A stretch of DNA of 64,000 bases from Sporopachydermia quercuum (taxonomy: Eukaryota), in the NCBI GenBank assembly GCA_001599295.1, contig BCGN01000007.1:260433-324432 (forward strand), read 5' to 3'. Position numbers and translations under genes: made by a program. Of the stretch, positions 1,924 to 57,298 are shown one piece after another (the first letter of the stretch is position 1; each line of letters begins with the position of its first letter). The notes beneath the pieces were generated by a model that saw nothing but the letters and a program-made list of their open reading frames with translations, made no database searches and had not been told where the DNA came from.

Positions 1924-4900
1924 TTAAATAGTATTCTCAAGTACACTTCTCTCTTTAAAGCAACTTTCAACTAGTAAATACTCATCTTTCTCTTTCTTCC
2001 CTTTCTCGCTTTCCTCTTTCTTTTCTTTCCATTGACTCAGCAGTTTTTCAACCTTAGAGAAAACAGGCTTCGGATAACTCATTCCTTTCATTATCTCAAC
2101 TATTCTTGCTGCACTCTTAACATCGTTCCAATAAACATAGCATCTAACCATTGATTCAAAAGTAGAAGGTTCAATCAACTTTTTACTGAGAATGTAGTCA
2201 AATAGCATTTCGCTCTTAGTTATATCCTTTAATGCCCAACCACGAATAAGAACATTAGCCATATAAGCATCTAGCTCGATATCATATCTGGCCATTTCTC
2301 TCATAATCCAACTTGTTTTCTTTAGTTCCTTATGGACAACACAGCATTCAAGTAATGTTTGGAATATAATTGGATCAGGTCTTATTATGACATTTGTTTT
2401 CCAAGCATCATTGATATGATTAGAATTGGAGGATGCATCATAACTCACAGTAGTATCTATATCTACAATATCTTCAATTTCTTCATTTAATTCAACATTA
2501 CCAACTTCAACTTCAATATTCAGAGCTTTCGACCGAATTGGAGTATCATAGCCAGTAATTAGCTTATAGAACTCAATAGCAGCATCAAGGTTGTTCAATA
2601 AGATTCCTCTGGCATAAATCAATGTAGCATAATGTCTACCATTAGGAGCGANTTTATTCTCAGTCATAGTAACTAATACTTTATCAGCTTCAACCAAATC
2701 TGTAGGTTCAATAACTGTATGCATATCGATTAATAGCTTATAAGTATAATGAGATGGTTCAATGCCTTTAGCAATTAGCCTCTCGTACAATTTCCTGGCT
2801 CTCTTCTTATCGTTCTTGTTATGAATATAGTACTTCAACATAATGTTGTAAGGAGCAATCTTCACAACATAATTGCTAGCATTTTCCATATCACTGAAAA
2901 GTTGTTCAGCTTTTGATCCCATATTGGCTCTAACTGCTGCTGATATCATAGTACCATAAGTAACGCTTGATTTCTTGATGTTTTTGGACTCCATTTCATC
3001 AAATAAAGCAAAAGCATCACGAATCTTCCGTGCTTTTGATAATTTGGCAAGCACTGCGTTATAGATAAACGTATTCAGCACAACATTATGTTCCTTAGCT
3101 TCCTGAAACCATCTCATAGCCTCAGTCACATCATCATGACCACCGAGTCTTGATGGGGATGATCCAACTATCAAGTGGCCATATCCATCAGCACAAGGAG
3201 TGGTTCTAAGATGTCTTAGTTCACAATATGCTTGTAAAGCCATNGAATAGTCTAAATTGCTGACAGACTTAATGACACTTCGGTGGATATTCGTCCATGC
3301 TGTATACGCAATATGGTTGGTTGTAGCACTGGGGAAAGCTTTATTGGCCTCAAGCAGAACAATTTTAATAGGATCAATAGCATGCTCATTACCGGCTGCT
3401 TCAATCAATGCACAGTATGCTTTATACGATAACGGGATATTCTCACTGATAGCATCTTCAAATCTTCGGAAAGCAAGACCAATCTTTCTGGGTGTTCTAG
3501 CAAGAAGGACAATATCATTTGAACGAATAGTGTCGTAAGTCATAGTAACTGAAGGTGTATAAGGAATATCTCTTAATGGGGGCTCCTCTGGAACAGCTTT
3601 TGAAATAGCAGAAATCACAGTACCCTCTGTGCTGGTTGACTTTCCTGGAGACATACTTAAAGAAGGCGAAGAAGCTTCTGTCAATAACAGAGGGGAAGCA
3701 TTTCCTGCTGAAGAAACTGTAGCTACTGGTGNCAGAGCTACTGGNGCTTTCTCATTGGTTGCTGTACTAGCTTTAGTTTCACAAGGATTGCAGTTCAATC
3801 TGGATTCAATTTCGTTGGCATAGCTAAACTGATCCCAATCATCAGCTACAATGCTCAGACCATTAGAAATATCAGTAATAAAGGAATCGCTTGCTTTCAT
3901 CCCACTGTTTGTGAAATCTTCAACAAATGCGTTAAATCCTTCTTTAAAACAGAGATATTGCTCTTTGGTGATGCCTTCCTGTCTGGTGAACAGCACCTCG
4001 TTAATGAACAGTAAATACCAGGAAATTACCTGAGAAATAATAAACGGCGACTTGTTGACAGCAGAAAGATAGCTAGAGGTCTTATTTGCCCGTTCTTCAG
4101 CTAAACGGTTTAAAAGTAACAGTATTGGTTGGAAATTAGTATTGGTACAACAGCAAGAAGCACTGAACAAAGACGAGCTGCATAGCTTTGCTGCTGTTTC
4201 GAAGTTCAGTAAGGACTTAGTTGATAACGACTTGGTGATCAGAAATAGAGCCTCTGACGACAACCCAGGGGAAGAGTACTTACTGACTGAGTTCTCGCTT
4301 CTAATACACTCTAACCAATCCAAAACCATAGTAATATTCATTAAATCCTCTGTAAGCAGATAATCAACGACCTCAACAAGCATTAAATCATCAAACTCAA
4401 CCTTTCGGATCATTGACTCTTTGACTAATTGCAGAACTTCATTGGTGTCGCCATGCTTTAATGCTAAGGCCAGATAGTCCATTCTAGCTGTTTGAATAGC
4501 AGAAACGCTGGTTAGATCGTTTCTAGCAGCAAAAAAGTTATAAATACGTTTAACGAAGCCAAAAGGGGAATCTGAATAACAGGCTTTAGAAACAAGCTTC
4601 CCAATGGTTGCTGGTAGAATAACTGAACCCTTCGATTCGTCGAGCTTTAAAATGCGGTTCCACGCTGTTTTCAGATCATTTGATTTGATTAAAGCAGCAA
4701 TCAGACTATCATATAGAAGGGTAAAGTCCTTAGCCATACTATTACTGATATTCGTAGTACTACTGCTATTACTATAACTATTATTACTGTCAGTACCCTG
4801 CTCTTTCAGTTTAGCTTTTTCTAGGAAATCAAATGCTTCGGTGTATTTTCCTGATAACACCAAAGCCTCAATCAAACAACAAGACATGTCCACTCTCAGG

Positions 4901-6597
4901 CCAGTAAGAGCTTCATTCTTACTGCTTCCTTCAACCATTTCCTTATATCGGCGGAAAATCTCAATTGCTGATTCCAATTGGTTGGAATTGGTGAAAATCC
5001 TCATTAAATATAAATAAAAGTGACCGGTTTGCTTCAGTTCTTTGTTGAGAATGTCGTTGGTTTCGATATATCTAACTAGTCTCAAGATACTTGTACTATC
5101 GGGTGAATTAAACACGGAGTAGCCTTTTAGCAGTTGTAGTATTAAATCAGCTGGATACTCCCGCTTCTTTCCTCCAGTTAATGAAGCAAAGAACAGTTTT
5201 GTAGACAACGTGAAATAGTCAGATGCTTCGTCTATATGATTTGAAGCCTCCGATATAGAAGCAGGTAATGCAGAATTAGGATGTAGTTGCTGGAACCGTT
5301 GTAAAGTGTTTCCATAGCAAACGGTTGTTTCCTTAGTTGAATGTAATGTGAGAGCAGCCTGTAGTAAGCCGGATAGGATTGTTTGATAGGTTTCAGTATT
5401 GGAAGAGACTTTATTATTAAGCATATGTTGATAAGAAGTTAGTAGGGATTCTACCTTTTCGCTGGTGCTTGAGTAGTAACCTTTAGAATGGATGATTGAT
5501 TTCAGCACAGCGTTATATGTTGATAGTTGTATTTTGGTTGCGTGAGAAGGAAAGGAAATAAGATGGGAATAATGATTGAGAACAGTGTTATAATCCGAGT
5601 GAGTAAAAGCTTCAGCTATAACAAATTCAGTAGTGTTTAACTGAGACGATAAGGATGTCACTGATGACGATGTGCTTGTGGCGGTGTCACCCGTTTCAGA
5701 AGTAGTCGAGAGTGCATTAGATGCCTTGATGATACCTTCTGTTTCAACAGTTGGCTCCGATACCTTTGCTGCTCTATTGCTCTCACTTCTCAAATCATCA
5801 ACGGTATCCTTTGTTATATTCAGAACTTTGCCATTGTCAAAAGCCATGACCTCGGGACCATTCTGATATGTTGTATTGAGAATCTGGTGAGAGTCGTTAG
5901 AGTTTCTCCTTAACACCTCCTCGGGTATCTGTGAATCTAAGGTGTGCTGTTGCTGCTGTTGATGTTCCTGAAGTTCAGAGTAATCTCTAATGTGTATATT
6001 CTTTCGACCCTGTTCATTATGCCATTCTATCTCCCGTTGTCTATCTTGTTGTGAGTTCTTCTGTATTTTCTTCTCAGTGTCTCTTTCATGAGAATTCGTT
6101 TCAGGATTACCTTCAGTAGTCTGATAAGCTGAACTACTATACCTTCTTCTATTAACTCGTTTGTTATCAACACTATGAGGTATGTTATCTAGAAAAGCAC
6201 CCTCTTTTGAAGCAATTAAATCTATAGCTTGACGAGCTCCAACCGCAACACTGAAAGAGCTTCTGCCTCTTTTACGAGATCCAATAGCAACTTCGGCTCC
6301 GTCTATGGCGATATCAGTATCATCATCATCATACTCAGATAACTGTGGATACTGAGCATCAGATCCATAAATTGAAGGACCAGAGAAATAATAAGCACGG
6401 TAATGAGGATCGCTATTTTTTTCATTAGAATAATTATTTCCGCTTGGGTTATAAAAATCTTTCGGTATTACTTTATTATGTTTCGAGTAAAGAAAAGGAT
6501 TTGATGGGTTGAAGAAAGACGGTTGAGACTGTATAGATGAAGCAATGAAGAGATTCTTTGCTACAGCAGCATGTCTTGATAAGGACTTGAACATCAT
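1924..6597 (-). CDS. Large mitochondrial pentatricopeptide-repeat (PPR) protein, 1557 aa (Ppr5/Rpm2-like class)
   Basis: Tandem 35-aa PPR motifs (FIYNAVLAKLSKARKIRDAFALFDEMESKNIKKS; VTYGTMISAAVRAN; APYNIMLKYY; YTYKLLIDMH). Basic, Ser-rich N-terminus resembles a mitochondrial presequence. Confidence 0.85.
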   Translation of the reverse strand: MMFKSLSRHAAVAKNLFIASSIQSQPSFFNPSNPFLYSKHNKVIPKDFYNPSGNNYSNEKNSDPHYRAYYFSGPSIYGSDAQYPQLSEYDDDDTDIAIDGAEVAIGSRKRGRSSFSVAVGARQAIDLIASKEGAFLDNIPHSVDNKRVNRRRYSSSAYQTTEGNPETNSHERDTEKKIQKNSQQDRQREIEWHNEQGRKNIHIRDYSELQEHQQQQQHTLDSQIPEEVLRRNSNDSHQILNTTYQNGPEVMAFDNGKVLNITKDTVDDLRSESNRAAKVSEPTVETEGIIKASNALSTTSETGDTATSTSSSVTSLSSQLNTTEFVIAEAFTHSDYNTVLNHYSHLISFPSHATKIQLSTYNAVLKSIIHSKGYYSSTSEKVESLLTSYQHMLNNKVSSNTETYQTILSGLLQAALTLHSTKETTVCYGNTLQRFQQLHPNSALPASISEASNHIDEASDYFTLSTKLFFASLTGGKKREYPADLILQLLKGYSVFNSPDSTSILRLVRYIETNDILNKELKQTGHFYLYLMRIFTNSNQLESAIEIFRRYKEMVEGSSKNEALTGLRVDMSCCLIEALVLSGKYTEAFDFLEKAKLKEQGTDSNNSYSNSSSTTNISNSMAKDFTLLYDSLIAALIKSNDLKTAWNRILKLDESKGSVILPATIGKLVSKACYSDSPFGFVKRIYNFFAARNDLTSVSAIQTARMDYLALALKHGDTNEVLQLVKESMIRKVEFDDLMLVEVVDYLLTEDLMNITMVLDWLECIRSENSVSKYSSPGLSSEALFLITKSLSTKSLLNFETAAKLCSSSLFSASCCCTNTNFQPILLLLNRLAEERANKTSSYLSAVNKSPFIISQVISWYLLFINEVLFTRQEGITKEQYLCFKEGFNAFVEDFTNSGMKASDSFITDISNGLSIVADDWDQFSYANEIESRLNCNPCETKASTATNEKXPVALXPVATVSSAGNASPLLLTEASSPSLSMSPGKSTSTEGTVISAISKAVPEEPPLRDIPYTPSVTMTYDTIRSNDIVLLARTPRKIGLAFRRFEDAISENIPLSYKAYCALIEAAGNEHAIDPIKIVLLEANKAFPSATTNHIAYTAWTNIHRSVIKSVSNLDYXMALQAYCELRHLRTTPCADGYGHLIVGSSPSRLGGHDDVTEAMRWFQEAKEHNVVLNTFIYNAVLAKLSKARKIRDAFALFDEMESKNIKKSSVTYGTMISAAVRANMGSKAEQLFSDMENASNYVVKIAPYNIMLKYYIHNKNDKKRARKLYERLIAKGIEPSHYTYKLLIDMHTVIEPTDLVEADKVLVTMTENKXAPNGRHYATLIYARGILLNNLDAAIEFYKLITGYDTPIRSKALNIEVEVGNVELNEEIEDIVDIDTTVSYDASSNSNHINDAWKTNVIIRPDPIIFQTLLECCVVHKELKKTSWIMREMARYDIELDAYMANVLIRGWALKDITKSEMLFDYILSKKLIEPSTFESMVRCYVYWNDVKSAARIVEIMKGMSYPKPVFSKVEKLLSQWKEKKEESEKGKKEKDEYLLVESCFKERSVLENTI

Positions 6598-9500
6598 TTT
6601 GCTGCTTTTTGGTTTAAATGAGTGTAGTTATTTCAATCATTAGGATTAATGATGATCTGTTCATTCACTAGTGAAAGTGACGACGGTAATAGAAATAATA
6701 TTAGTTATTGTGTTGATGATGTTACAATGAGTAAATCTACTGAGCACCAGTGGTAATACTGCAATAGATAGATAGGTATGCAGAACAATAGGTGAGTTAT
6801 TGTCTGCTGAAAATAAGAATCAACAACACATTGAAAAATGAATATTCAATCGGAAATATGCAATTCCTAATAAATAAACGGAGCAAATCTATACTGTTAA
6901 TAAGAGAAGAAGTTAATGATATCTGTGAAGATGAATGAAACTTTTCATAGAGAAAGGATACGGACATGCCGAATAAAACAGAACAAACAGCAATGTCACA
7001 TATGTCATAGAGGACGAAACTGGATATAAAATTTAGATTGGAGTCAAAAGTACTGAAATTAGTATTAAGGTTTGAGGGAAATAAACGGTGGAAATTAGGA
7101 TAAGGTTAAAGCTGCGTTAACTGTGCAGAGTGCTACTATCAGGTTGAGAAGGAAGAATGGAAAGAAAGGGAATAATTTTACGAATAGAAATGGGCTAAGT
7201 TTTTAAATGCGTTGAAAATGAGATATATTCCATATGCTGAAGGCTTTGGCTTATGTGAAAGAATTGAATCGGAAAAGGGGTAAACTTAGGACAGACATTT
7301 CATTTCGGCTTTCACTAACGACTTGCTTCCGAAATAAACCCAATGCATGGAATATGTAGATGGTTGGTAAGCTTTTGAACGAATAGCAGGTGGAAGGAAA
7401 TATTCGGAAAGTGGAACTTAATATTNCAGAAGTTTAACTTAGGACATTTTGCAATGGAGACTTGATGTTGGTGCATTGAATAGTCTGCCTTTCATCTAGA
7501 GAATAGAATAGCAGTGAAATGAATAGACGGGTTACCAACAATCAAAGAAAAAAGAGTTAATCTAGCAAAATATTGTGATGGTAATCTATCATAGCGTTTA
7601 ATGTTGAATTATTTGCGTCGGACATTAGATATTGGAATGTTAGAATGTAGTATGTAGCCTTCAAGTAATGTGAGTATAGATGAGTAAGGTCAAATGTCAT
7701 TATAGGTCCACCAAGTAGTGAAACATTGGATTAGCTAGGAGATATATTTTTTATTGAAAACGATAATAAAATAACTAAATTTCAAAAGAAAAGCGATCCC
7801 AATTCCCGAGTTTCCATTCTTTAATTTTCATTTATANTATTTCAACTTTCATGTTTGGATGAAGAAGTAAATGTCAGAAAATGTCAGGGCAATTCATTTA
7901 ATGCTAGTTAAACTTTGTTTTAAAGTTTGGTTAAGCTCCGGTGCCACCGCCACAATTCTGATATTATTGTCACTTGTTCCTTGCAAGCACACATNTCACC
8001 ATCAATTTTGTAGTGCGAGATTTCGGATTATATTTTACTTGATTTGCACACTTCATTTACCGATTGTTATTTATACTTATATATGACTATTTCAATAGNC
8101 TTCAAAGCATTTATTGTCTTCTAATCAATATTGAGGGCACGATGGCAGGCGGCTATATTCAAAGATTATCGGTGGCTGTTATTGTTCCAATCTAAGAGTT
8201 AAACATTCATCAGTCTATTGTCCCCAAGTAGCCACCAACNCTTCCTTTTTTGTCTTAGGGCCTGAACTAAAATTCAAATAGCAGCGCCACAAACGAAAAC
8301 ATTTCGGACTCTAAAAACACATGTTACGCATTATTCAACGCGAAAGTTAACCTTATTAAGCTTCGCCAAAGAAATGAAATTTGCCCTATGTTATTGAACT
8401 TTTCACTTCTGCTCGTTCTTACCACTAATGTAAGCCAATCAAAGAAAAGGCAATACTGTTCTTTATATTCATGTTTTAGAGCAACGACTTAATGGGAACA
8501 ACCATTGGACTGACATTTAAAATTCTTTGTTTGACATGCTGAGATAGGATTTAAAGGTTTCAATAGAATTTGAAGTATCTTGAAGTAGTAGAATGATACG
8601 CGAAGTAAATCTGGTTGACAGCAAATGTCTGATGGGTCTTCATTATGAATGAAGCGATTCTTGATGGTTAAGCAACGCAGATGAGCAGACTGCTGTTGAN
8701 ACTTATATTGATGAGAAGCTTTCTTCTAAAACTTTTACTATTGGGACGGTTACTTTTTTTTGTTTACCAATTTTAATAATCTACTTGTACCTCTTTACTG
8801 AGAATAGAATGCATATTATCCACGTTGAATTCCTCCAATAACCTAATACGTTGGACCATATATCGTTCACTGCTCTCTTAAAATGACTATGTAGTTTACC
8901 ATTGATATATAATAATCAGACAAATATACATACTATCGATCAGTATAAACGCTAGAGAGTACTTTATTTACTCAATAAGCCTTGACTTGTCTTCGACTTA
9001 ATAATCAACAACAGGCCAAGTGAGAATAGAGAATATGATCTTCAATTGAGAAATATCGTTATCATATGCCAATGAATTTTCATTTATTGTAGTGTCAACA
9101 TTATCAAATCATGATAACAAGAGAGTCAATGCTAAATTATGAATCAATCGTAATAAGCGTATTACTCATGCTTCATACTGAATATACGTATATTTATTTA
9201 ATAGTTCACTGATTCGACTAATAATTGCCAATTATATTCTTATTCATTTCTGTTCTATGGGTAAAAAGGTATCCATCATCAACTATCTGTATTGATATAG
9301 TTTGATGAATATAATAAGTCATGTAACTTTATCAACTTTTGGTCAATAATTACGAGCTGAATAAACATTCATCCTACAGGAGATATCCCAAGAACGTTTG
9401 AAAGATCTTTCTCAAACTATTTCTCTATTATATTATTGTATTAATTATATTATTATTATTAGTATTAGTTTAACTGTTTCAGTAAGATGAATCAACTGAT

Positions 9501-20081: not shown

Positions 20082-21325
20082 GAGGCATTGAGTAGCACTG
20101 GGTTGAATAAAGACACGAAACTCTGATCTTTTGGGTCTGTTGGTGTTCGTGTTTCTGTTTCAACTATATATTTTTGTTTTGATGATTATATAAATTATTC
20201 CAATCATCCTCATTGGGATGGGATCCTCAATTATAAGATCCTCATGTATTATAGATGTTTATGCATTACCCCATAGCTAATGTTTTATGTATGCTAATGA
20301 ATTGAATTTTGATGTTTATCCTTTTATCATTTAGTACAATTGGAAGCAATGGAGAAGTAAGCCTCTCTACAATGCATTTNGCAATGATGGTTCACCTGCA
20401 GGATCTTGTGATCGAAGCTCTCTTAATTCTCAGCATGAATGAATGTTACTTCCAACATCTGGTATCATTATTGCATTCTCATTATTATTACCTTTTTTAT
20501 TATTACACGTACCATCTTTCCATTCAAGCGGAGGNGCTTAGCCGCCANTCCATCAAGTAGCCTTTTCAATGTCACATGATCTTCNTCCTTTATTACCCTG
20601 TGGGTCTCCAGAACAACCCCTCATTATTTCCATTATTACCTGGACCCCCACCCGTCTCTTGCATTGCCCCTGCGTCTGAGCCTCAAGTCTTTTTCCACCC
20701 CTNAAGTCTAATGAACATTAATTGATTACAACTAGCAATCTCCCATATATAATTTGTATGTATAGTGGTTTGCTGTTGTACTGATCTGTTTTATGTTCAA
20801 TCCAGGACCAACAGAATAGTCACTGGAAGTTACTATTATAGGGTAGTTTTTCTGTAGGTAGAAAGTCTTCTTGGAGCTTGATTGCTTTTCTTATTGTTTA
20901 AAGGNAAAGAAAAGAAAGAAACAAGACGCTATAATAGGTTGATTGTGGTGAAGATAGCATATAATAGACTCAGACAGACAAGATAGGATACGATAGATCC
21001 TTTTAGTTGAGAAAGAGCTGATTGCAGTAGAATAAACTACTAATAGTTGGATATATGCAGAAATTCACACAACTAGGCTGAAAGAAAGAAGATACGAATT
21101 GGAACAGAAAATTACTATCTACAGTGCAGGTTATTTATATTGTAGTTGGAAGGTACCAAGAAGTACATTATTTTTCCGTTTACATATAAATATATGAATA
21201 AGCTCGGTGCTCTGTCATTGGTTACCAGCATATAATTGAATTCAGCGCAACACTAATTCAATTGCTATTCNTTCAATTATTTTATCATCTAGAGGAGATA
21301 TAAGTAACCAAACTGGGATATAAAA

Positions 21326-45499: not shown

Positions 45500-46677
45500 T
45501 AGCCATGCTGAGATAATAAGTAGATAGGAAATAATACTGAGAATGTTGCGAATAAAGCTGCTAAACGTTTTTACTTAATTATGATGATAGTAGAAGAATA
45601 GTATAACGCATGCCATTAAAATAGTTGTAAAATTAGTATCCTATCTGTGATCATAAGCTGCGAGATGAGATAAACGATACATGTGAGTTTATGTGACTAT
45701 GAGAAATTCAGTATGCAAAACATGCAAATTATACATTAAGATGAAAACCTCTACAGAAGATTCGTTGGTAAATTGTTAATGGAGTAAGAGAAGTGCGGGC
45801 ACATTAAATTATACAATTATTGGTTCCGGCTAGTAATTTGGTAATTCGGCAATTCAATTAGATAGAAAAAAGAGGTTCTCATCTGTTCGCTAAAAAAGCA
45901 AGATTTTGCATCATCGACTGTTGAGATACCACGCACGAGAAGCTTCTAAAAGGATTTCTAAATGGAGTCTAGTATCGCATTGACTATGCAGGATCCTCAA
46001 GTTAAACATTTTTGAATATAATAGAGGTTTCGATTCATTAGATGAGTGGAATCTAGAGAGTTAGTTACTAGTTCAAATGCTCAATTCTTTCTACATTAAG
46101 TGTCCTGAAAAGCTGTGTAAATCGTAGTATCGAGTAATACCTCAAAGGTTTGGGAGTGTTCCCATGTTTAAGCTGTAGAGTGAAACCCTATTTCCATTCA
46201 AATATATCACTGAGTTCGTCTTTGAACGTTCTAATGCCTTTAGCATTTTTTAGTCCGAGTTATTCCACCCTATCCTATCCTTTTGTATAGAATTAAGTAT
46301 AATTTTAGCGAGACCATGCATTTCGTATCCTACTGAACTTCAGGTCAACAGTTAGTATGTTGAGATCAATTAGGTTGCCTCAGCATGTTTCCTTCTATTC
46401 TTAATTATTTCTATTCTTTCTGCCGTACTCTTTGAACTTATAATTCCAGCCATCATCTCCATTATTAATATAATCATTTAATCAAACAAACTGAGAAAAA
46501 CTTCCAACTAATCTCCTGCGCACACACACACACATTTGTTACAGTCTCATACGCAATGCATATTTCTACCTTCTGATATAAATAATGAGCGCCAGTATAG
46601 CATTCATAGTGCACAGCATCAATGCAAACTCTGCAGCTCCTAACAATCATCCCCATCTCACATCACCATAATACTGC

Positions 46678-49600
46678 TCATACAGTATTACATTTGCAGT
46701 TACAATCAGGGACAGGACATACAAAGTGCTTTGCAAACCATTCCTCTGCATGGCCCGCATGCATTCCATGATTACAGCTCAAACAGAAACTAAACCATTT
46801 CTTGAACTCATTCGTAACATCTTTATCGTTATCTTCCGTGTTATAGTCATCATTTTGTTCTTCCTCTGAATGGGTTTCAAGCCTTGATGATTTCGCGGGA
46901 TTCATCTCTGACCTGCTAGTCTTATTATTCAAATTATGGAATGAACTTGCTAGGCCATGATTAGCATTTGCTGATAAAGATACATGTTTCGCAGTAGAAC
47001 CTCTTGGACCACGTTTTGCTCTTCTTTNAGTTGATTCTGCACTAGTTACATCTAAAATAGGTATCGACGAACCTAATGATAGTAGGCATACAGCGCACCT
47101 AGGTAAAGGAGAATTGCAATGAGGACAAGTGATATTGTCGGAGGCCCGGATCATTTCGGAGCTGGAGCTTCGACCAGATCTTTGGAAAAACTTCCGAACT
47201 GTTTCTGCCTTTCTTGTAGCTGTTGTTTGTTTAGAAATACTCTGATTACACCGAGTACACTGTAAATATACTTGTCTAGGTGCAATTCTAACCATATTTT
47301 CGCCGCTATTATTAACTGATAGTTTAGCACGTGCTACATCAAAACGAGCTCTTTGATGGAAAAAGCCCCAGTGGTTTAAAAGTTCTCGATACGATTCAGT
47401 CCACATTTCGGCTTTTTCATCGGAGAAATATTTCGGAGTTCCGAACGCAGCTATTAATGCAGCTGTCTGGACGTCTCCTGTACGATCCACATATGCCTGG
47501 AGTAATTTCATGCCATCTGGAGTTATTCCTGTTAACAATAAGCCTTCAAGTTCACCTTCTTTGATAGCTCTTTCCGAAACTCGTGTTAGATATATGGATA
47601 AGTCCTTATCAGAAAGAAACCTCAAAGCAATTCCGAGCCTCTCTCTTAATGGTAGTGAGCTTTCATCTAAAACTTCCCACCAATCATTATCGGCTATAAA
47701 CGCGAAGATTGCTCGGAGATATGGGTCATCCAACTCCGAAGACATTTTTCGGCATTGTTCCTTCCATGGTGAATTCTCTGGTTTATCCCGGAACGCAGAG
47801 TATCCTGCTATGGCTGTAGATATTAGTTTCAGCCTTTCCGAAGGTGACCGGCTTAACACCTCTACTGCTTTTTCCACATTTCCATGAAAAACTGCCCATC
47901 CTGCTGCTTTTTCGTATTGTTGGTTTTCTATTATCTTGTCTAGCATGTCATCAAGTTCATCTAAGCCAAAGGAGAACCCCAGGACTATCAAACAGAGTTT
48001 CCGATGCCATAAATTAGATTTCACACCATGAACCTTATTCTGGAAATTATTCTCAACTGGGAAAGTGCGGCAGCCTATTTTGGCAATTATTTCTTCAATA
48101 GCTGTTTCGAATAAGCTTGGGGTTAAAGGTTGGGTTCCTTTTGGGAAGTAACGGTTTTGACTATTCAGCCCGGATACTCCTGCCCATATTCCGGATACTC
48201 CCTCATATCCCAAATCTATTCCCGAGCTCGAAAAGAGTAATTTATCCCTGGTGTATTGTTCCCCCAGTTTGATCCATCCCCAAGTGTTGTGTAGATGTTC
48301 CATAGACCCGACAATATCCACATTAGATAGGATTTCTATATTATTACTAGTATTAAGAGAATAACCAGCTTCAGCCCGCTTTCTAATTAAAGAACAGACA
48401 TCACGGTCCAGTACTTCACTTGCAGGAAGAACTCTGTCAAAAGAGCGATTAGATGATTCTCTAGATGCACCGTCTTGTAGTGAAACATCTGATGGGTACC
48501 TTGTTTTCGTCGTGTTGTCTGTTGGTAAAGTATCTTTGGGGCCCATTCCAATAGTACTTAAACGATGAGTTTCTGGTGAGCTTTCTGCTGCTTCAATCGC
48601 ACGGGCGAGTCCGGAAGGATACTGCAGCATTGTTCCGTCAACACCTGTTATTGCCATCGAGTTCCGAGGATCGAACTTTACTGCATACTGACTTTCCACG
48701 GCTTCCATTTTGAATACTAAGCCGGACATTCTCATACAAATCACGTTAACTTTCTCGGGCAAATAGGGATCTGGACAGTANTCAAAGGACACTATTTTAT
48801 CTAGATTACTTTTAACATCTAGAACATTAGCGACGAATAATGTCCGAGAATAATCAAAGTCCGATTGGGTTCCAATATCATCCGAGGCTCCCGTGGACTT
48901 CCGAGATTTTCTCACAGGAGGGATTTTACCTAATTGCCATCTTCTTAATAAATCTCCGGAACTTAAAACACCAAACTCTCCCCTTCGGATGGCGGAATAT
49001 CGGAAACATGTAGAATGACTCTTCCGAGATGTATCGGACAGTAACCTGTTGAAATATAAAAGAGGCTCCGCAGAAGTACCTGTGGCTGATTGGCGAAGTT
49101 GCCGACGGTCCCAGATAGCTACTGAACCTTCTTCTGAGTAGGAGGCAAATAGATTCGCATCATAAGGATCCATAGAAATGCCATGGACGCATCTTGTAGC
49201 ACACTGCATCACTGAGGATTGATTTGTTGGTTGCCGTATGTCTATCTCCCGTAGAAACTTGTAACTTCCGCATACTAAATTATGGTTTGAATCAGAAAAG
49301 AATCCTAACGACGAAACGACTTCTCCTAATAGATTATGATACACTGGTTTGCCAAATATATCAGAAGTGTTTGCCGAAGAAGCAGGGACAGACGAATTTA
49401 TCATCGAGGCAGCTGAGTATCGGGATGTGTCCCATATCTGTAAAGAGAAATCGGACCTTACTTTATCCAATCCAACAGCAAGAAGATTATCGGCATTGAA
49501 TACAACAGAATTACAGGGACGTGCCTGTCTACTTTTCAGTCTCACTACTGTTGAGTCTGGGTCTGTTATATCCAGTAGCGATACCGTTCCATTGAGTTGT

Positions 49601-50076
49601 CCAACAGCTAATAACCCTGTGCGCGATTTGCTGAAATTCAGACACTGGATAGAATCAAAACCGGATCTTGATTGTAGTTTGGTTAAGCTTTGAATATGTG
49701 CCTGAATATGTTAGTGAATGTCAAGCCACTATACCTGTTGTTCTGTTCTACGGGTTGACGTGTAAATCTATTGTTGCATGCCGTTGATGTAGGATCACCG
49801 ATGCACACAAAAACATATGCTTGGCTTTAGAGATCACTCATAGATAAGAATCTAGCAAACATGCGAAGCGAAGCAAACGATAAGCCTCGTCCATTTGGAA
49901 TCAACTCTCTAACTCAGCAAACACCATCAACAACAACAACTACATATTCCTGTACTTACTGGTGACTCATACTGTGCCACATGTAACGATACTTCGTCTC
50001 GTGAGGGATTCACAGCTAGAAATCTATGTTCCAATCCTGCTTCCCATTCTGCAATTCGAATGATTGTCCCTGTCAT
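46678..50076 (-). CDS. SEA4: SEACAT/GATOR2 subunit Sea4 (MIOS), about 1046 aa; exons 49960-50076 and 46678-49701, intron 49702-49959
   Basis: N-terminal WD40 (LAVGLDKVRSDFSLQIWD), solenoid (DPYLRAIFAF; YVDRTGDVQTA) and C-terminal RING (LPRCAVC...CNHGMHAGHAEEWF...CPVPDCNCKC). Intron GTAAGT..CACTAAC..CAG in frame. Confidence 0.95.
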
Positions 50077-50806
50077 TGTAGATAGTTGGTGTCCCCAATA
50101 AGAAAGTGGCTTCGCATAGCATAACAAAGAAATGGGTAACTACTGCACAATTGTGTTATAGCAGAAGCAGAAGCAGAAAGAATGAATAATCCGAGAGAAC
50201 GATTTATTCATGTCGGTGATTATATTTGTATCAATTATCAAACGATCAATTGAGNTTTTGTGAGAAACTACAAATTTATAATTTCCGGAATTAGCCAAAC
50301 CCGGAGACTATAATATAAATTCCGATGTTGAAATATACTACGGATATAATAATATAATTTTCGCAATGTACTTAATGTCGGAAACTATAACAACGTATCT
50401 GATACACGTCTTCCTACTTATACTTCAATTAATTATTAAAACCTACATTTCATTTATATGATCCGTTGACCGACCAATTATAACATTCCTATTTTCTTTC
50501 GTAAATAGAGTTTTCGATATCAAAAGATACGTTATTCATTGTCCTTCTAAACTCATCCCATAAAGTAACCATGAATGACGATATGATACAATAACTGTAT
50601 TCTCCTTAGACGTTATGGTTGTATTTGCAGTGAAGATATTGAGCCAGCAAAAGCATAAAGCAGTGAAGTCAGTGAAATCTGTAAAGCATGTTAAAGCAGT
50701 GTTCATCAAGTCTTCTTCCTTGTTACTATTCGCACTAACCACAGCAATCGAACAAATCTCACTAATATTCTATACTGCAAGGGCTTCTCATATACATATA
50801 CATATA

Positions 50807-53041
50807 TCAAACTTTATCTAGCACATTTTCTAACAATAAACTCTCAATTTCATTAAACTGATCAATCTTAACCTTTTCCCTCTCTACCAGTAGATCCACT
50901 ATTTCCGAAAGCTTCTTCAAATCAGGCAGCAACATGTCCGATCCGTACTTACTCAGTTGCATAAGAATCTCCTTCTCTGATTGCCATTTTCTCTCCACTA
51001 TTTCTTTGAATGTCGGCAAACTAGCTAGGGAGTTCAATTCTGTGCCTTTCACCATTGTGAGCATTGGATGCTGGAATTTCAATGGCTCTAGACTTCGGAT
51101 TAAAGGTGCTCCACGCTTCAATTCCCGTTTGAGAGTCCAATATTTACAAATCTTGGAGACGATTAGGCTGGCTACTGCAAACCCACATGAAAACCCGAGC
51201 CGAGATTCAATGTTTTCGTCATTAGCTATAAGGTCGGTTATAAATTCATGAACAAATCTCGGAATAATTGGTATTCCTGATCCGGTTTTCCACGGGATTT
51301 CGATCGCTTCTTGAATTCCCCGCTGATGCAATTTAATTTTCTTTTTTCCAAACCCTTTCGATTTTGATTCCGATAATTTCCGTTTTATTCCCACTGATCT
51401 AGCAATTTTTCGCTTTGAATCTCTTCCTGAGCTTCTTCCCGTGTTTCGTTCCGCTTTCTTCCGAGAATGTTCATGCTTGATCAAAAGCTTAGCTCCAGCC
51501 TGAGCCGTTGCCTTTTTATACCGTCTTCTTCGTCTATAGTAATCACGTGCTCTCTCTAAGTTTTCTATCACATGATTTTCTCTGAAATACTCCTTAGAAC
51601 AATGCTTCTCGCAGTATGTAGTCAAAATTCCTGTCCCATTCACCGCCCCAGAAACACCGAGCTCCATAGAAAGATATAAGTGGGCATTCCGAGCACAGGT
51701 CACATGATAAGCTTTGAAACAGTTCTTGTTACTGCATTGAATAGGAGATCCCATTTTCTCTTTACATATGTAACAAACAAGTTTCCACCGAGATTTGGGA
51801 ATGTTTTCCTGTCCTTGGATTGGTTCCAGGTAAACGTGATTGCCTAAGGAAAGTTCCGGGATCCACAATGCACATAGTAAATGACCCCATTGATTAGAGT
51901 CAGTTTGCTTGAAAGCTCCGGAAATATTCGGGCAGAAAATGCATTCTACCGATTGATCCCGGAGAATAAGACACTTTCGGCAGAGCCATTGACCCTCTGG
52001 TATAAAAGCTACACCGTAACATTCCTGATGTACGGCAATATCACAACCGTCACAGAAAACAATGGCATTGCTATTGTCACATTCACTTTCATTACAGACA
52101 ACACAAACTTGCTCTTCATTAGCGAAAAACGTTTGCTCATCCATAAACCCGTTTTCTGCTTCCGAGCTTTTTATATGGACGTCAAGTTCTGCTTCCGAGA
52201 TATCGGTGTTTCCTGTGTCATGTTCCGTCTTCAGAGCATGAAGCATACTTTTCTTCAACTTTGTGGGCATTCTCCGTTCTAATGTAATCCAAACATTCTC
52301 TATAAGGCTCATTATGAATTCAAATTGAATTCGGGATAAAGGGGAAGATCCATCCGCTATTATTTCCGCGTCTAATGTGGAAATGAACTCTTCGTCCTGT
52401 TCATCCATGTCGTAAGATATTGGAAGATCCATGATAGCATCGGAATCAACTATAGGAATTGATCGATCTCCCCGTAAGTGCTGATTTACTATGGAATCAA
52501 TGATCCAGTCTAGTTTCAGGTTGTGGAGCTGGTGAGTTCCGTCTCCGGTTTGAATATATGCATTTTGTAGTGAAGTGTCTGATGGTTGTTTGTTGGTGCT
52601 GTGGACTGTATCGTTGCCATCGGTAATATTGTTTATACTCCTACGGCTTTTTAAAGCCAATTCGGTAGTAGATCCCAAATCTGGCAATATATCCGATAGT
52701 GGGGTTCTGAAAGATCCCGTAATCTCAATTTTTGGTTTATTGAGCGGTGGAAGAACTCCGGAATCCTTTCCTATATTCCCATTTGATCTATCATTTTTTC
52801 CGGTATTCACCTGCCGCAAAGTTGGAATTTCGGAATCTATGTCGGAATCAGTGATGAAAACCGGTAATAGTTTTTTATCTGATAGATCAGGATAAAACTC
52901 TTCGTATCCGTATTCTTCCCGAGGTTTCCCGTCAAATACAACCCCGGATCTATTGCCATTGGTGATTGCACTGAGTCCTGTTGGATTCACTGTTCCGTTC
53001 CCCAAATGAAGTCCGGAGAGAAGATTATTATTTGTAGACAT
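50807..53041 (-). CDS. NTO1: NuA3 HAT complex subunit Nto1 (EPL1 + PHD + extended PHD)
   Basis: EFYPDL; YDMDEQDE; CVVC...NAIVFCDGCDIAVHQECYG..IPEGQWLCRKC; GAFKQT; WKLVCYIC; KYWTLKRE..RGAPL. Confidence 0.94.
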   Translation of the reverse strand: MSTNNNLLSGLHLGNGTVNPTGLSAITNGNRSGVVFDGKPREEYGYEEFYPDLSDKKLLPVFITDSDIDSEIPTLRQVNTGKNDRSNGNIGKDSGVLPPLNKPKIEITGSFRTPLSDILPDLGSTTELALKSRRSINNITDGNDTVHSTNKQPSDTSLQNAYIQTGDGTHQLHNLKLDWIIDSIVNQHLRGDRSIPIVDSDAIMDLPISYDMDEQDEEFISTLDAEIIADGSSPLSRIQFEFIMSLIENVWITLERRMPTKLKKSMLHALKTEHDTGNTDISEAELDVHIKSSEAENGFMDEQTFFANEEQVCVVCNESECDNSNAIVFCDGCDIAVHQECYGVAFIPEGQWLCRKCLILRDQSVECIFCPNISGAFKQTDSNQWGHLLCALWIPELSLGNHVYLEPIQGQENIPKSRWKLVCYICKEKMGSPIQCSNKNCFKAYHVTCARNAHLYLSMELGVSGAVNGTGILTTYCEKHCSKEYFRENHVIENLERARDYYRRRRRYKKATAQAGAKLLIKHEHSRKKAERNTGRSSGRDSKRKIARSVGIKRKLSESKSKGFGKKKIKLHQRGIQEAIEIPWKTGSGIPIIPRFVHEFITDLIANDENIESRLGFSCGFAVASLIVSKICKYWTLKRELKRGAPLIRSLEPLKFQHPMLTMVKGTELNSLASLPTFKEIVERKWQSEKEILMQLSKYGSDMLLPDLKKLSEIVDLLVEREKVKIDQFNEIESLLLENVLDKV

Positions 53042-54133
53042 CTCCTTCCTTTGTATTTTATAATATTACCTTTGAGGCTGCATCATTATATTTATAACGG
53101 ACAAGTGGTAATAGTATTGGCTTATAGTGGGAACAAGATTGATTGATTGCTTTCCCCTTAGTGTCACACTTGCCAATAAAGCTGAAGGTCCCCAGAGTGT
53201 CAATGTTTTGATAGGAAGAACAGGATGCTAATAGGAAGACTCCGTTGATGATGAATAAACAATCCAGCTGATGTATGGACTGCAAATACTCAGAAATTCT
53301 CGGATTCTCTCCGCCTTTTTTGATCTGATGATTGAGATTGTTCCGTTATAAGCAGATAAACAATGCGCGATTGGGACAGAGATAATATCGGACGGTAAAA
53401 TGCGTTGTTAATGNACAAATATGGAGGTAAAAATGTCCGAATAATTACGGAGACAGCAGGGAGGGGGGAAGAGAGATATATATGAAGAAGAGTGTGTTTA
53501 CATTTGTTGAATTACGACTATTAGCTATTCCTTTTCTTCTATTTAAATAAATGAATATTGGAAACATATTTATTTATGTTTTTAATTTTAAAACTTTATT
53601 TTCACTGTGTAATATCTATCAGNTGCACCTCTTTCGCGCCTCATACAGTGAATNACGGAAACTATGTCATATCTAGTAACATAAAATGCGAGCTAACGCC
53701 AAAATCAATCTACCTTTCAAATTTGTATAATCTCCGGAATCATTTCCTACAAAACACGAGGAGCGTCGGCTCATCCGAACCATTTCCAATAAGCCTGTAA
53801 ACAACTGGGATCTTAGATATTCTTCCTGTTTTTTCTCATTTTCATACAGTTTTCCTCCGAAAGTTTTTGTGCGGTATTTTCGGGGTATTCTGATTGTCTC
53901 CTTAACTGTNGGCTATCATCAATTGTATTGTCGAACCGACATCTNCAACATTAGGCTTCTATTCATAGTAAATGTATCTATATCAACAATCATCGTACAT
54001 TTATAGCTTCTATTAGTACCAGCGGCACATCCGAAGCGGAGGAAAAGTAGCGGAACGAATACTGTTTGACATTCTGTACAAATTCTATACACTTTAATTG
54101 GAATTGGAATTCGTATCTGGCCAATAGCCCACG

Positions 54134-57100
54134 ATGAATACTCAGCCGCAACCACTCGAAGAACGCATGCTGCAAAAAATGCGAAAGCAATGGGCAGCAG
54201 AAACTTTGATGTTGAAGACACGAGCGAGATTCCAGAAGGTCCGAAGCGTGCGGATAACGGTGTTCCTGGTATTTTTCCTATTGTTAGTAATCCATGGAAT
54301 AGCAGTTTCATTATTCACTAAAGGGTTTTTGCTCAGTCGGCAAGTTTTACCCGATCTTTCCCAATGCGGTGAATTACCCGGCAGTTTCAGTAAAACCGGA
54401 AACAACTCTGGAAACGATCTTGAAAACGGATGTTGGAATGAACCGACATTCGACCGGGCGGTGGTGATCCTAATCGACGCGCTGCGCTATGATTTTACAG
54501 TGCCAGGCCCTTCGGATCCCAAGCTGAAACGGGCATATCATGACGCTTTCACTGTTTTGCACGAAACGGCAACAGAAGAGTCTGAGAATGCGTTACTCAT
54601 GAAATTCATGGCTGATCCTCCAACAACTACTCTACAGAGACTTAAAGCTCTTACTACAGGATCTCTTCCTACTATCATTGACGCTGGGTCTAATTTTGAT
54701 GGAACAGACATAACAGAAGACAACCTTTTAGCCCAGCTAAAAAGTAATGGCAAAAGGATAGCATTTTATGGCGATGATACCTGGATAGCTTTATTTCATA
54801 AATATCTTGATCCTGTGTTGAGCGTACCATATGATTCACTTAACGTTAAGGATATTCATACTGTTGATGATGGTGTCCAGAGTCATTTATTACCATTACT
54901 AGGAGATAAAAGCGGATATTCAGAATGGGAAGTTGCTGTTGGACATTTACTAGGTGTTGATCATGTAGGTCATTCGTTTGGGCCAGACCATTATACTATG
55001 ACGGAAAAACTACAAGAAATGGATGAATTTATCCGGAATGTCATTGATATAATTGATGATGAAACACTTTTGGTTGTTATGGGTGATCATGGAATGGANC
55101 CTCGAGGAGATCATGGAGGAGAGTCTATTTTAGAGCTTGAAGCTGCTCTTTGGATGTATTCTAAACGACCAGTTTTTGGTAAACGATACACCGCTGTTAA
55201 TAATGGCGGTGGTGATAGTATTAGCAATGGTGAAAGTGAAGGATTTGACGTTCGAACGGTGAATCAGATTGACTTTGTTCCGACTTTTGCTATGTTGATG
55301 GGAATTCCCATTCCNTATAATAACCTTGGACTTCCTATTGAGGAAGTGTTTGTCAAATCGGGAAATGTGGCCAGGAACTTTATGCTAACTGCAGAGCAAA
55401 TATTCCGGTACTGGAAAACCTATCCTGGGTTGGACTTATCGGACATGTTAAGTAAGAAGTTTTCCGCTGTTGTTAGTCATTGGTCGGAACAAACCGGAGC
55501 AGATGAATTGGAAGGAAAATCGGAATTTTCTGCCGACATTATCTCCGAAGTTTCGGAATTCCAAAGTTTGGCTCTTGCTGATCTCAGAAGCAGATGGACC
55601 TCTTTTGATTTGCCTATCATAGGCCTAGGCATCTCATTATTAGCTACTGCAGTAGCTCTCACTGCTGCTTATGGATTCTTTCTACCTGCTGTAGTAGCCA
55701 TGCAGCTTTACACTCAAGTGCTACAGAATGTTGGCAAAGCATCTGCCCTTGGATTGCTAGCAGGCCAGTTTCTCGGCTGGAAAGTTGTGCCCGAATTAGG
55801 ACCTGTTTGGTGCAGTCTTTTAGGCGCAGGTTATGGTTTATCTATGGCTTTCATTCTGCCTATTCTACAGCGGTACCATTCTGTTGGTATCAGCAGGCCC
55901 GACGGCTGGTCTATATTTGGTGGGGCAGTAGTTGTGGCTCATTGCCTTTTGTTTGCTAGCAATTCGTTTGTAGTCTGGGAAGATGCCGCCGTGAGTTTAT
56001 TTGTTCAGACTGTCACGGCTGCCTTTTTGATTGCGGGTATACGTAAAAACAGAGGGATTTTCCGAATCTTCACAATTTTACACTCTTTGGTGTTGATAGG
56101 AGTATCCCGGATCAGTTCTGGCAGCAGAATCTGTAGAGAGGAACAATTGCCTAACTGTTCTAGCTCTTTCTATGGTTCAGAGCATAATTCTGTCTCCTCT
56201 GGTACAACTGTTGCAGGTTTATTGACAATTCAAATCTGTTTACCAGAGATTGCTCGTACCTTCTATACGTTCCAAGGGTCGTATGAGCTGTCGGCCAAAG
56301 CTTGGATTGGAGCTGCTTTACGCCTGCTGCTTCTACTCACATCAGCATTTTGGGGCATAGAATACGCTGAAAGCGCAGGCGTTAAGTTCTTTACCCGCAA
56401 TCCCTCTGTTATCAAGGAGACTAAGTTCACGTTGTCGAGAATTGTTATGGGGGTTAGTTTTGTTGGTATTTTGATATGGTGGTGGCTTGTCCCATTGTGT
56501 GTAGGTGTTTCTGTTGATATTGAAGGCAAAGCCCCGCAGAATGAATCGAGTAAAGGAGTTGGTAATGGACCAAACAAGCAGGAATCGGCTGTAGTAAGCA
56601 ATAGTGAAACTGAAGATCTCCATGAATCTCATAATACCTCAAACAAGAAGATTGTTGGCCTTGATAATATTTATGGCTCTTCTTATATGTTGTTACTACT
56701 AACATTCTTTGTTCCAATTCAATTGACCGCTAAACCAATGGGAGGGATCTGTTTAGGCTTATTGATTTACTCATTATTCACCTGTGCCGAGCTTTTCCAT
56801 ATCCTTGGTATGCAAACATCTGTAATGGCACCGCTGATACTTGGATTGCTAGGAAACAAGTATATATTTGCTACAGGACATCAAGCAACAGCTCAATCTG
56901 TTCAATGGGATGCTGGTTTCATTACCGGTTCTACTATCACCTTCCCTTTCACTCATATCAATATTCTCCTTAACTCAGTAGGGTCGATCCTACTCACAGG
57001 ACTTGCAGTTCCCTTGCCATTATTATGGGGAGTGAAACCAGTGAAGAATCCTAATTATCTTCTTAGTGAGATAGCTCAATCATCAATGGTGTTTTTATTT

Positions 57101-57298
57101 TATCATAGTGCTGTTGCTCTAAGCACGTTTATATTTGCTGCATTTTTCCGAAGACATTTGATGGTATGGAAGATATTTGCTCCTAGATATTTGGTAGGGG
57201 CTTTGACCATGATAGTTGCTGATGTGAGTGTTTTGATAGGAACTGGTTGGAATGTTGGTAGGCTGTTGTCTCAAATAGCGAAGACTTTTGGAATATGA
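54134..57298 (+). CDS. GPI13: GPI ethanolamine phosphate transferase 3 (PIG-O)
   Basis: FTKGFLLSR; IDALRYDF; ADPPTTTLQRLKALTTGSLPT; HLLGVDHVGH; GDHGM; CREEQ; RRHLMVWKIFAPRY; multi-TM C-terminal half. Confidence 0.96.
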   Translation: MNTQPQPLEERMLQKMRKQWAAETLMLKTRARFQKVRSVRITVFLVFFLLLVIHGIAVSLFTKGFLLSRQVLPDLSQCGELPGSFSKTGNNSGNDLENGCWNEPTFDRAVVILIDALRYDFTVPGPSDPKLKRAYHDAFTVLHETATEESENALLMKFMADPPTTTLQRLKALTTGSLPTIIDAGSNFDGTDITEDNLLAQLKSNGKRIAFYGDDTWIALFHKYLDPVLSVPYDSLNVKDIHTVDDGVQSHLLPLLGDKSGYSEWEVAVGHLLGVDHVGHSFGPDHYTMTEKLQEMDEFIRNVIDIIDDETLLVVMGDHGMXPRGDHGGESILELEAALWMYSKRPVFGKRYTAVNNGGGDSISNGESEGFDVRTVNQIDFVPTFAMLMGIPIXYNNLGLPIEEVFVKSGNVARNFMLTAEQIFRYWKTYPGLDLSDMLSKKFSAVVSHWSEQTGADELEGKSEFSADIISEVSEFQSLALADLRSRWTSFDLPIIGLGISLLATAVALTAAYGFFLPAVVAMQLYTQVLQNVGKASALGLLAGQFLGWKVVPELGPVWCSLLGAGYGLSMAFILPILQRYHSVGISRPDGWSIFGGAVVVAHCLLFASNSFVVWEDAAVSLFVQTVTAAFLIAGIRKNRGIFRIFTILHSLVLIGVSRISSGSRICREEQLPNCSSSFYGSEHNSVSSGTTVAGLLTIQICLPEIARTFYTFQGSYELSAKAWIGAALRLLLLLTSAFWGIEYAESAGVKFFTRNPSVIKETKFTLSRIVMGVSFVGILIWWWLVPLCVGVSVDIEGKAPQNESSKGVGNGPNKQESAVVSNSETEDLHESHNTSNKKIVGLDNIYGSSYMLLLLTFFVPIQLTAKPMGGICLGLLIYSLFTCAELFHILGMQTSVMAPLILGLLGNKYIFATGHQATAQSVQWDAGFITGSTITFPFTHINILLNSVGSILLTGLAVPLPLLWGVKPVKNPNYLLSEIAQSSMVFLFYHSAVALSTFIFAAFFRRHLMVWKIFAPRYLVGALTMIVADVSVLIGTGWNVGRLLSQIAKTFGI

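Follow-up and report, generated by a model that had tools for sequence, protein, structure and literature searches.

Compositional islands in genomes are usually ascribed to bulk forces, namely GC-biased gene conversion, methylation decay or AT richness, whereas in the domain described here one triplet, CCG or its complement CGG, is enriched 3.7-fold over 9 kb. This domain lies within a 64,000-nucleotide stretch of Sporopachydermia quercuum (contig BCGN01000007.1, positions 260,433 to 324,432), hereafter called the window. Among the closest described systems, the sites of the zinc-cluster proteins Gal4, Pdr, Ppr1 and Rgt1 are built on the CGG/CCG triplet, with flanks that often give words found in this domain. 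In Schizosaccharomyces pombe, AT islands serve as replication origins set by local composition, and in Escherichia coli the very-short-patch repair system, a sequence-specific mismatch repair, shapes the frequencies of CCWGG-related words. Moreover, CCG-rich DNA can itself generate a recombination hotspot, and both GC-rich recombination hot regions and nucleosome-excluding (CCGNN)n hotspots have reportedly been described in Saccharomyces cerevisiae, by Petes in 2001 and by Kirkpatrick and colleagues in 1999. As to proteins that read such words, zinc-cluster (Zn2Cys6) proteins are described in the relevant part of PMC10954478 as binding CGG triplets either singly, as monomers, or in repeats that may be direct, inverted or everted, and the site cores given there for Gsm1/Rds2/Ert1 are CCCGGA and overlapping CCGG. 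The CXXC domain of CFP1 favours CpGG 4-8 fold according to an excerpt of PMC3072069, while a section of PMC3945215 places the GC-ACS origins of Pichia pastoris at promoters, with the core TYGAAC.

The window is budding-yeast nuclear DNA with a GC content of ~36%. An earlier reading of the letters without database searches (the sequence-only reading) had proposed that CpGs are abundant between 47100 and 56200 and lie there mostly in CCG or CGG context, on the basis of hand counts in six blocks. All six were reproduced exactly, with 18 of 19, 16 of 19 and 7 of 10 CpGs in this context inside the domain and 0 of 2, 3 of 10 and 1 of 5 outside. The boundaries were searched by a two-change-point likelihood scan of the CCG/CGG density over the whole window, taking the best single enriched segment. 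This unbiased scan gave 47100-56150, in agreement with the proposed extent, and the edges within 2 units of log-likelihood (lnL) fell at 47000-47100 (left) and 56100-56400 (right). The resulting island and the genes and intergenic regions that it covers are the following:

47100..56150, no strand: main CCG/CGG island, defined by change-point scan, k-mer enrichment, flank frequencies and counts.
46678..49710, minus strand: SEA4/MIOS-like gene, with an ATG open reading frame (ORF) at 46678-49404 and an open frame that extends to 49710 (stop-to-stop frame).
49711..50806, no strand: non-ORF DNA between the open SEA4 frame and the 3′ end of NTO1, delimited by sequence inspection.
50807..53041, minus strand: NTO1 gene (NuA3 subunit; Pfam PHD/EPL1 domains), entirely within the island and forming its peak.
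53042..54133, no strand: divergent NTO1/GPI13 promoter region, with CCG/CGG-context CpGs within AT-rich DNA (7 of the 10 CpGs between 53281 and 53460).
54134..57298, plus strand: GPI13-like gene (Pfam Phosphodiest), its first ~2.0-2.3 kb in the island and its last ~1 kb outside.

With expected word counts taken from the rest of the window, the island presented 329 CpGs against 179.5 (1.8-fold) and 229 CCG/CGG triplets against 62.5 (3.7-fold), while the excess was 5.8-fold for TCCG/CGGA (116 vs. 20.1), 7-fold for TCCGA/TCGGA (53 vs. 7.3) and 27 vs. 2.8 for TTCCGA/TCGGAA. In addition, CCGA/TCGG and CCGG appeared at 4.6 and 4.9 times the level of the rest of the window, CCCGGA was the most enriched 6-mer (8 vs. 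0.1 expected) and TTCCGAA/TTCGGAA was found 8 times against 0.8. The CpGs in CCG/CGG context accounted for 200 out of 325 inside the island and 337 out of 1073 outside (Fisher P-value of 4.7e−22), whereas those in the remaining contexts were flat (13.8 per kb inside vs. 13.4 outside). The GC content, which was 0.407 inside and 0.364 outside, became 0.363 and 0.352 once the triplets were masked. Thus, the island corresponds to ordinary background sequence to which ~165 extra CCG/CGG triplets have been added. Relative to the expectation from base composition, the ratio of observed to expected CCG+CGG was 1.50 inside and 0.56 outside, and relative to a first-order Markov expectation it was 1.60 inside, 0.95 outside and 1.16 in a GC-rich control (16001-19000). 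The excess also survives a GC-matched control, and a plain rise in GC does not explain it, as had been argued beforehand. Furthermore, the four NCG contexts outside the island track base composition, and therefore the background is not specifically short of CCG. The observed/expected ratio of CpG itself was 0.83-1.01 in seven of the nine 1-kb bins between 47 and 56 kb and 0.65 at 55-56 kb, the window-wide value being 0.59. As a separate observation, the island is also depleted in TTGAAC/GTTCAA (1 vs. 12.3 expected), TTCAA/TTGAA (30 vs. 65) and CTTGA/TCAAG (13 vs. 31.5), and the depletion of these words far exceeds the general loss of AT-rich words.

The excess was then compared with what the encoded proteins demand, by codon resampling in which the amino acids were kept and the codons were drawn from ten other genes of the window. 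A total of 65 CCG/CGG triplets were found in SEA4 against 33.9 expected (z 5.1), 74 in NTO1 against 25.1 (z 9.4) and 61 in GPI13 against 41.8 (z 3.0), while the ten other genes gave z values from −2.9 to 0.1. The claim that protein constraint does not explain the bias therefore stands, the excess surviving amino-acid control (z 3.0-9.4), and the amino-acid composition of NTO1 falls inside the range spanned by 43 orthologues that have a similar length, out of 120 listed. When synonymous codons were shuffled within genes, SEA4 and NTO1 remained in excess (65 vs. 52.1 and 74 vs. 55.8 expected, respectively), so codon order contributes besides codon choice. The triplets occupied all three codon phases, and G+C at third codon positions was 0.34-0.38 in the island genes and 0.27-0.34 in the other genes. 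All five classes of silent opportunity for a CCG/CGG triplet were used 2.3-3.5 times more than in the other genes, including CGG for arginine (35 out of 137 vs. 22 out of 302) and codons of the form xC[C/G] followed by G (88 out of 253 vs. 91 out of 668), which bears out the proposed use of synonymous sites. A position-dependent, DNA-level force that overrides codon preference is indicated, since a quarter to half of the silent opportunities are taken in three unrelated genes.

This usage changes within single genes as well. In SEA4, the final ~420 bp of which lie outside the island, 62 of 247 silent opportunities were used inside and 3 of 35 outside (P-value of 0.03), and in GPI13 the figures were 51 of 202 and 10 of 93 (P-value of 0.005). 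Moreover, the density of CCG/CGG in non-ORF DNA was 16.5 per kb in the island and 5.5 per kb outside. Gene boundaries are ignored, as had been stated, the excess being 3.5-fold in ORFs and 3.0-fold in non-ORF DNA and the island edges lying inside SEA4 and GPI13. The sequence-only reading had also named a common CCG/CGG level of low-expression genes as the outcome that would turn the domain into a codon effect of genes; nearby genes of low codon bias are found to be without excess. The CCG/CGG pattern is confirmed as real, and the core proposal of a regional, context-specific effect at the DNA level is supported by the amino-acid-keeping, masking, Markov and within-gene tests.

Regarding the profile of the island, silent-opportunity use was highest in NTO1, with 0.26-0.54 per 150-codon bin, and dropped outward from 0.27 to 0.14 along SEA4 and from 0.39 to 0.07 along GPI13, in keeping with the fading through GPI13 reported from the hand counts. 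Within the island lie the two intergenic regions that bear promoters, while the intergenic regions flanking it on either side are convergent and have none. One of the former, 49711-50806, likely holds an upstream SEA4 exon together with the SEA4 promoter; it is AT-rich, yet TTCCGGAA, CCCGGAG, TTCCGAT, ACGGAT and TCGGAA all occur within 50280-50390, and the bin 50251-50500 has 9 CCG/CGG triplets at a GC content of 0.29. Before the triplet, T is preferred at −1, with a frequency of 0.51 compared to 0.32 outside, and also at −2, while a purine at +1 and A at +2/+3 tend to follow it; the resulting consensus, tTCCGraa, is equal on both strands, and the flank information is weak beyond 2-3 bases. 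CCG and CGG were equally frequent, and their order along the island formed 87 runs against 87.1 expected, so that this run test revealed no strand-coordinated runs of the kind left by hypermutation. No depleted precursor word was found in the island among the single-step neighbours or the AA/TT-to-CG dinucleotide swaps, the single-step precursors CTG/CAG and CCA/TGG being undepleted. The near-variants TCCCG, TTCGG, TTTCG and CCCGA were enriched in a graded manner, as were the CpG-decay products TCTG and TCCA. With respect to spacing, direct CCG-N7-CCG pairs, 10 bp or one helical turn apart, numbered 11 (maximum-statistic permutation P-value of 0.006) and everted pairs at 11 bp numbered 7, while most island triplets were unpaired.

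The main domain is not unique in the window, as a weaker one was detected about 40 kb away:

4800..8200, no strand: second, weaker CCG/CGG island, extending over RPM2 up to about codon 600 and over ~1.6 kb upstream in which no gene lies.

Here CCG/CGG reached 14.1 per kb compared to 6.9, at an unchanged GC content of 0.361, and the lnL gain was 11.0, whereas none of 100 permutations went beyond 6.9. Within RPM2, 28 of the 135 opportunities in codons 1-600 were used, compared with 14 of 189 in the rest of the gene (P-value of 0.0007). The DNA upstream of this gene (6598-8097) had 18 CCG/CGG triplets beside 29 CpGs, and no ORF of at least 70 amino acids with a plausible product was found in it. 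Each island lies over promoter regions and continues into the adjoining genes for 2-3 kb, which corrects the geometry of the sequence-only reading: the main island is promoter-anchored and not an arbitrary chromosomal block. On the other hand, nine other genes of the window used their opportunities equally in their 5′ and 3′ parts (0.088 vs. 0.090). Thus, the feature recurs and is centred on promoters, but only on some of them. A further peak at 16500-18300 (18.9 per kb, in CDC39) was rejected as an island, since its GC content of 0.47 and the amino acids encoded account for it (53 triplets in the gene vs. 65.2 expected).

For comparison with other fungi, NTO1 relatives were taken from metagenome loci, of which 40 out of 52 were kept, all of them distant, after dropping 12 that were duplicates or short, weak matches. 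The CpGs of NTO1 were in CCG/CGG context in 75% of cases here and in 18-46% in these 40 loci. Furthermore, no comparable anomaly appeared in 3-kb windows of 35 NTO1 loci (547 kb), where the best P-value was 3e−3 against 1e−11 here.

Altogether, the data require a directional force acting site by site, with a preference for T-CCG-R and an anchor at certain promoters. Tentatively, the island may be a closely packed set of T-CCG-R half-sites for a putative protein that reads CGG, retained at silent sites through weak selection, a reading that we regard as possible and still well short of probable. A strand-symmetric force at the DNA level would have added the ~165 T-CCG-R triplets (in words such as TCCGGA, CCCGGA and TTCCGA), with nothing else altered, and a CGG-recognising protein would use these as its half-sites. 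The reader would most likely be a fungal Zn2Cys6 zinc-cluster protein, or alternatively one with a CXXC domain of the CFP1 type. The island would then be a multivalent landing pad read by the density of its sites, with the promoters of SEA4 and of NTO1/GPI13 as its anchors and an extension of 2-3 kb into the gene bodies, and weak selection would keep the triplets through silent codon choices and free intergenic positions. A degenerate recognition site fits because no precursor is depleted and the near-variants are enriched by degree, and recognition by a protein fits because of the short flank preference, the graded near-variants and the pairing at one helical turn. That a protein reads the triplets, which protein this would be, and that selection rather than transmission bias would maintain them, we infer from the sequence; no match to the Zn2Cys6 family was found in the 20 window ORFs scanned against Pfam.

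Several points weigh against such an array. The gain from one more site among 200 would be tiny, while a transmission bias acting per site would give uniform use without any function, and the shape of the island, a promoter plus 2-3 kb with the highest level between two promoters, fits conversion tracts equally well. A CXXC reader should favour other CpGs also, yet those are flat. As many as 193 of the 229 triplets (~84%) lie in ORFs, where known zinc-cluster sites do not work, and a second-order Markov model predicts most of the TCCG/CGGA words (116 observed vs. 101). Apart from the direct pairs at 10 bp and CCGG, the island has no dominant spacing or orientation, and the nucleosome-scale periodicity that had been suggested as a check was not found, neither long-range 10-bp nor nucleosome-type periodicity being detected in it. 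Lastly, no precedent was found, no triplet-specific island in a yeast being reported in the literature searched.

A serious alternative, itself rather doubtful, is word-specific biased gene conversion or mismatch repair. In this case, breaks in the SEA4 and NTO1/GPI13 promoters, either meiotic or mitotic, would produce heteroduplex over 2-3 kb in which a repair step recognising T-CCG-R settles mismatches towards the CCG allele, so that CCG-creating mutations near the hotspot would be over-transmitted whether coding or not. Such a process agrees with a force that works site by site and near-equally in ORFs (3.5-fold) and non-ORF DNA (3.0-fold), with the strand symmetry, and with silent-opportunity use that peaks between the two promoter regions (0.26-0.54 in NTO1) and falls to 0.14 in SEA4 and 0.07 in GPI13. 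It also agrees with two promoter-centred islands, of which the main one is bracketed by convergent, promoter-free intergenic regions and the second spreads to a similar extent over RPM2 and over the gene-free DNA upstream of it, and with only some promoters being affected, as for hotspots (0.088 vs. 0.090 in the other genes). However, the known GC-biased form favours any G or C, while here the GC content outside the triplet is unchanged and the non-CCG CpGs are flat; a rise in nothing but the triplet (masked GC of 0.363 vs. 0.352) makes classical GC-biased conversion unlikely, although biased repair or conversion had been among the processes first proposed. In addition, a repair activity specific for CCG was not found for fungi in the literature searched, nor do we know of one, and the direct pairing at 10 bp is unexpected from the repair of single mismatches. 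The undepleted CTG/CAG and CCA/TGG precursors also count against conversion, though a back-flow from CpG decay could mask their depletion. The half-site array and word-specific conversion are close rivals, the array being slightly the more likely.

The other explanations fare worse. Local mutagenesis anchored at promoters and tied to transcription initiation, making CCG directly and with a reach like that of somatic hypermutation, would account for the distance of ~2-3 kb from the starts of four genes (SEA4, NTO1, GPI13 and RPM2). It is nevertheless improbable, as precursor words show no depletion, turning AT-rich triplets into CCG would take several kinds of substitution, strand-coordinated runs are absent (87 vs. 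87.1 expected), ~1.6 kb of gene-free upstream DNA is affected as well, and CCG/CGG stands above the neutral expectation (observed/expected 1.5).

More unlikely still is an island of the CpG-island type, in which the bulk of the genome loses CpG through methylation or another decay and the island is protected. Its promoter association and its CpG observed/expected ratios of 0.83-1.01 in most bins, against 0.59 window-wide, resemble such an island, but the excess is confined to CpGs in CCG/CGG context (13.8 vs. 13.4 per kb for the others), the level of the triplet is 1.5-fold over expectation rather than simply undepleted, CCG outside the island is no more depleted than other NCG words, and a GC content of 0.41 is under every CpG-island criterion, vertebrate islands having a G+C of about 0.5 or more together with a CpG observed/expected ratio of at least 0.6. 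The local protection of CCG from decay, another of the processes first proposed, is disfavoured on the same grounds, the triplet being 1.5-fold over the expectation from base composition and other CpGs not being spared.

The chance of a foreign or introgressed segment, derived from a yeast with a different sequence signature, is about equally slight. The left edge is fairly sharp, and the tetranucleotide signature deviates even with the CG, CC and GG words left out (distance of 0.154 between the island and the rest, compared to 0.083-0.12 for nine control segments). Nonetheless, the edges fall within SEA4 and GPI13 and the profile is graded rather than uniform, the codon choices unrelated to CCG (T/(T+C) of 0.63-0.69, AAA, GAA and CAA) are like those of the remaining low-bias genes of the window, ambiguous bases are as dense inside (9 in 9.05 kb) as outside (61 in 54.95 kb), and a second island exists; moreover, a donor with such a signature would itself need explanation.

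A centromere-related array, with TTCCGAA sites like those of centromere DNA element III (CDEIII) bound by a zinc-cluster protein like Cep3, has a very small probability. GPI13, one of the three intact conserved genes inside the island, is essential in S. cerevisiae, and these genes speak against a centromere, as do two islands 40 kb apart on one molecule and the lack of a gene-free core, inverted repeats or a retroelement cluster in the island. A sequence-defined centromere is a single short, gene-free element per chromosome with a conserved motif of more than 15 bp, while the flank logo here is weak beyond 2-3 bases. What recommends the idea is the count of TTCCGAA/TTCGGAA (8 vs. 0.8 expected), CCGAA being the conserved core of CDEIII in the relevant part of PMC12925627, and a 17-bp motif with CCG present at the centromeres of a Phaffomycetales yeast according to a portion of PMC12711049. 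Against it, five names of window genes were looked for in the latter, a centromere-synteny paper, and none of them is given there. Finally, an effect at the level of genes, through their codon usage, amino-acid content or low expression, is next to impossible, for although SEA4, NTO1 and GPI13 all have low codon bias, the amino-acid-keeping z values are 3.0-9.4 against at most 0.1 in ten other genes, use shifts within GPI13 (P-value of 0.005) and SEA4 (P-value of 0.03), non-ORF DNA is enriched 3.0-fold, and NTO1 in 40 loci of other fungi shows 18-46% where 75% is found here.

As to the locus itself, Pfam names the window genes as RPM2, ERG13, CDC39/NOT1, POP2, a MNN10-type transferase, SEA4, NTO1, GPI13 and DIP2. 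The top database matches of DIP2 were 52-53% identical and spread about equally across many budding-yeast orders, and that of NTO1 was 36% identical; the lineage carrying the window is, judged by its letters, isolated among budding yeasts. The stretch 40400-53622 was present in three public data sets of one organism with at most 3 letters differing, and because these sets carry it near-identically it is real sequence and not an assembly error, while two further organisms of the same public study gave matching pieces of only 38-50 letters to this query, and no RNA data set was among those listed. The SEA4 product matched Pfam MIOS_a-sol, zinc_ribbon_16 and MIOS_WD40, the last beginning at profile position 123, and an upstream exon is likely because the open frame continues past the first ATG to 49710. 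The gene models used here are simple ATG ORFs, and as the lineage is apparently intron-rich, the promoter positions are approximate. Fragments of conserved genes were seen as ORFs at 9694-10893, 22471-22848, 32699-33532 and 46678-49710, in the ERG13 ORF ~43 positions were missing from the start of the N-terminal domain, a C-terminal piece of the CDC50 family stood isolated, an NGP1NT (NOG2-like) domain lay inside an ORF of 277 amino acids, and the SEA4 frame continues 5′ of its first ATG. Such fragmentation suggests a yeast lineage with more introns than usual.

Only two RNA genes were detected in the window, namely the H/ACA small nucleolar RNA snR191 (32396-32617, minus strand, 75 bits) and a tRNA-Ile(AAT) (13461-13534, plus strand). 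A piece of 69 bp between SEA4 and NTO1 (50570-50638) matched, with 4 mismatches and 4 gaps, a contig of ~830 bp. Relative to the chromosome, this contig had a depth ~29-fold higher in each of two runs (2827 vs. 97.5 and 1051 vs. 34.8), and the piece probably belongs to a dispersed repeat. It matched neither a tRNA nor an Rfam family. In addition, the window had 70 single N positions, ~1 per kb, which clustered in intergenic stretches, with 5 in 532 bp at the NTO1/GPI13 promoter (53414-53945) and 6 in 526 bp at 20380-20905. These single Ns may mark heterozygous positions, if the strain is diploid, or letters that were masked; 2 of 9 inside the island and 3 of 61 outside fell at potential CCG sites, numbers too small to judge.

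If these results are taken together, it is possible, and put forward here with reserve, that this lineage has ‘CCG islands’, that is, promoter-anchored domains of 3-9 kb marked by the density of one triplet, which runs on through coding sequence by way of silent sites. Such domains would be either a methylation-free counterpart of CpG islands or the footprint of word-specific conversion or repair, neither of which has, to our knowledge, been described in eukaryotes. In the former case, a zinc-cluster or CXXC reader may set a chromatin, replication or recombination state, and the islands would offer a chromatin signal coded by density in an easily manipulated yeast. In the latter, this would be the first word-specific biased gene conversion that locally shapes a eukaryotic genome, and a caution against taking patterns at synonymous sites as selection. 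CCG islands are detectable from sequence alone.

Compared with the described systems, clusters of Zn2Cys6 sites (Gal4, Pdr1/3, Ppr1, Rgt1 and Gsm1/Rds2/Ert1) share the CGG/CCG unit, often as CGGA/TCCG, CCGG or CCCGGA, and in fungal promoters several weak sites act jointly (relevant part of PMC10954478). The known clusters have 2-10 sites in a promoter of a few hundred bp, whereas the island has ~200 triplets over 9 kb with 84% of them in ORFs, so that their upstream regulatory location is not that of the island (193 of 229 in ORFs). Vertebrate CpG islands are likewise promoter-anchored, run into first exons and present a short motif read by density, but they arise by passive escape from methylation decay, involve every CpG context and are GC-rich, unlike an island restricted to CCG/CGG at a GC content of 0.407. 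As far as we know, budding yeasts do not methylate their DNA. GC-rich hot regions and GC-biased gene conversion also generate compositional peaks of kb scale at promoters regardless of coding, although such conversion raises all G and C and not one triplet only. The (CCGNN)n hotspots are made of a 5-bp repeat, whereas the island has no CCGNN periodicity, with only 2 direct pairs at distance 5. The very-short-patch repair of bacteria is genome-wide and tied to Dcm methylation, while the effect seen here is local and eukaryotic. Replication origins at compositional islands resemble the island in their local composition or short GC-rich motif and in their association with promoters, yet they are intergenic and shorter than 1 kb, and the core in P. 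pastoris is TYGAAC rather than CCG, the island being depleted in TTGAAC (1 vs. 12.3). Each known system departs from the island in at least one tested defining feature and shares one or two features with it.

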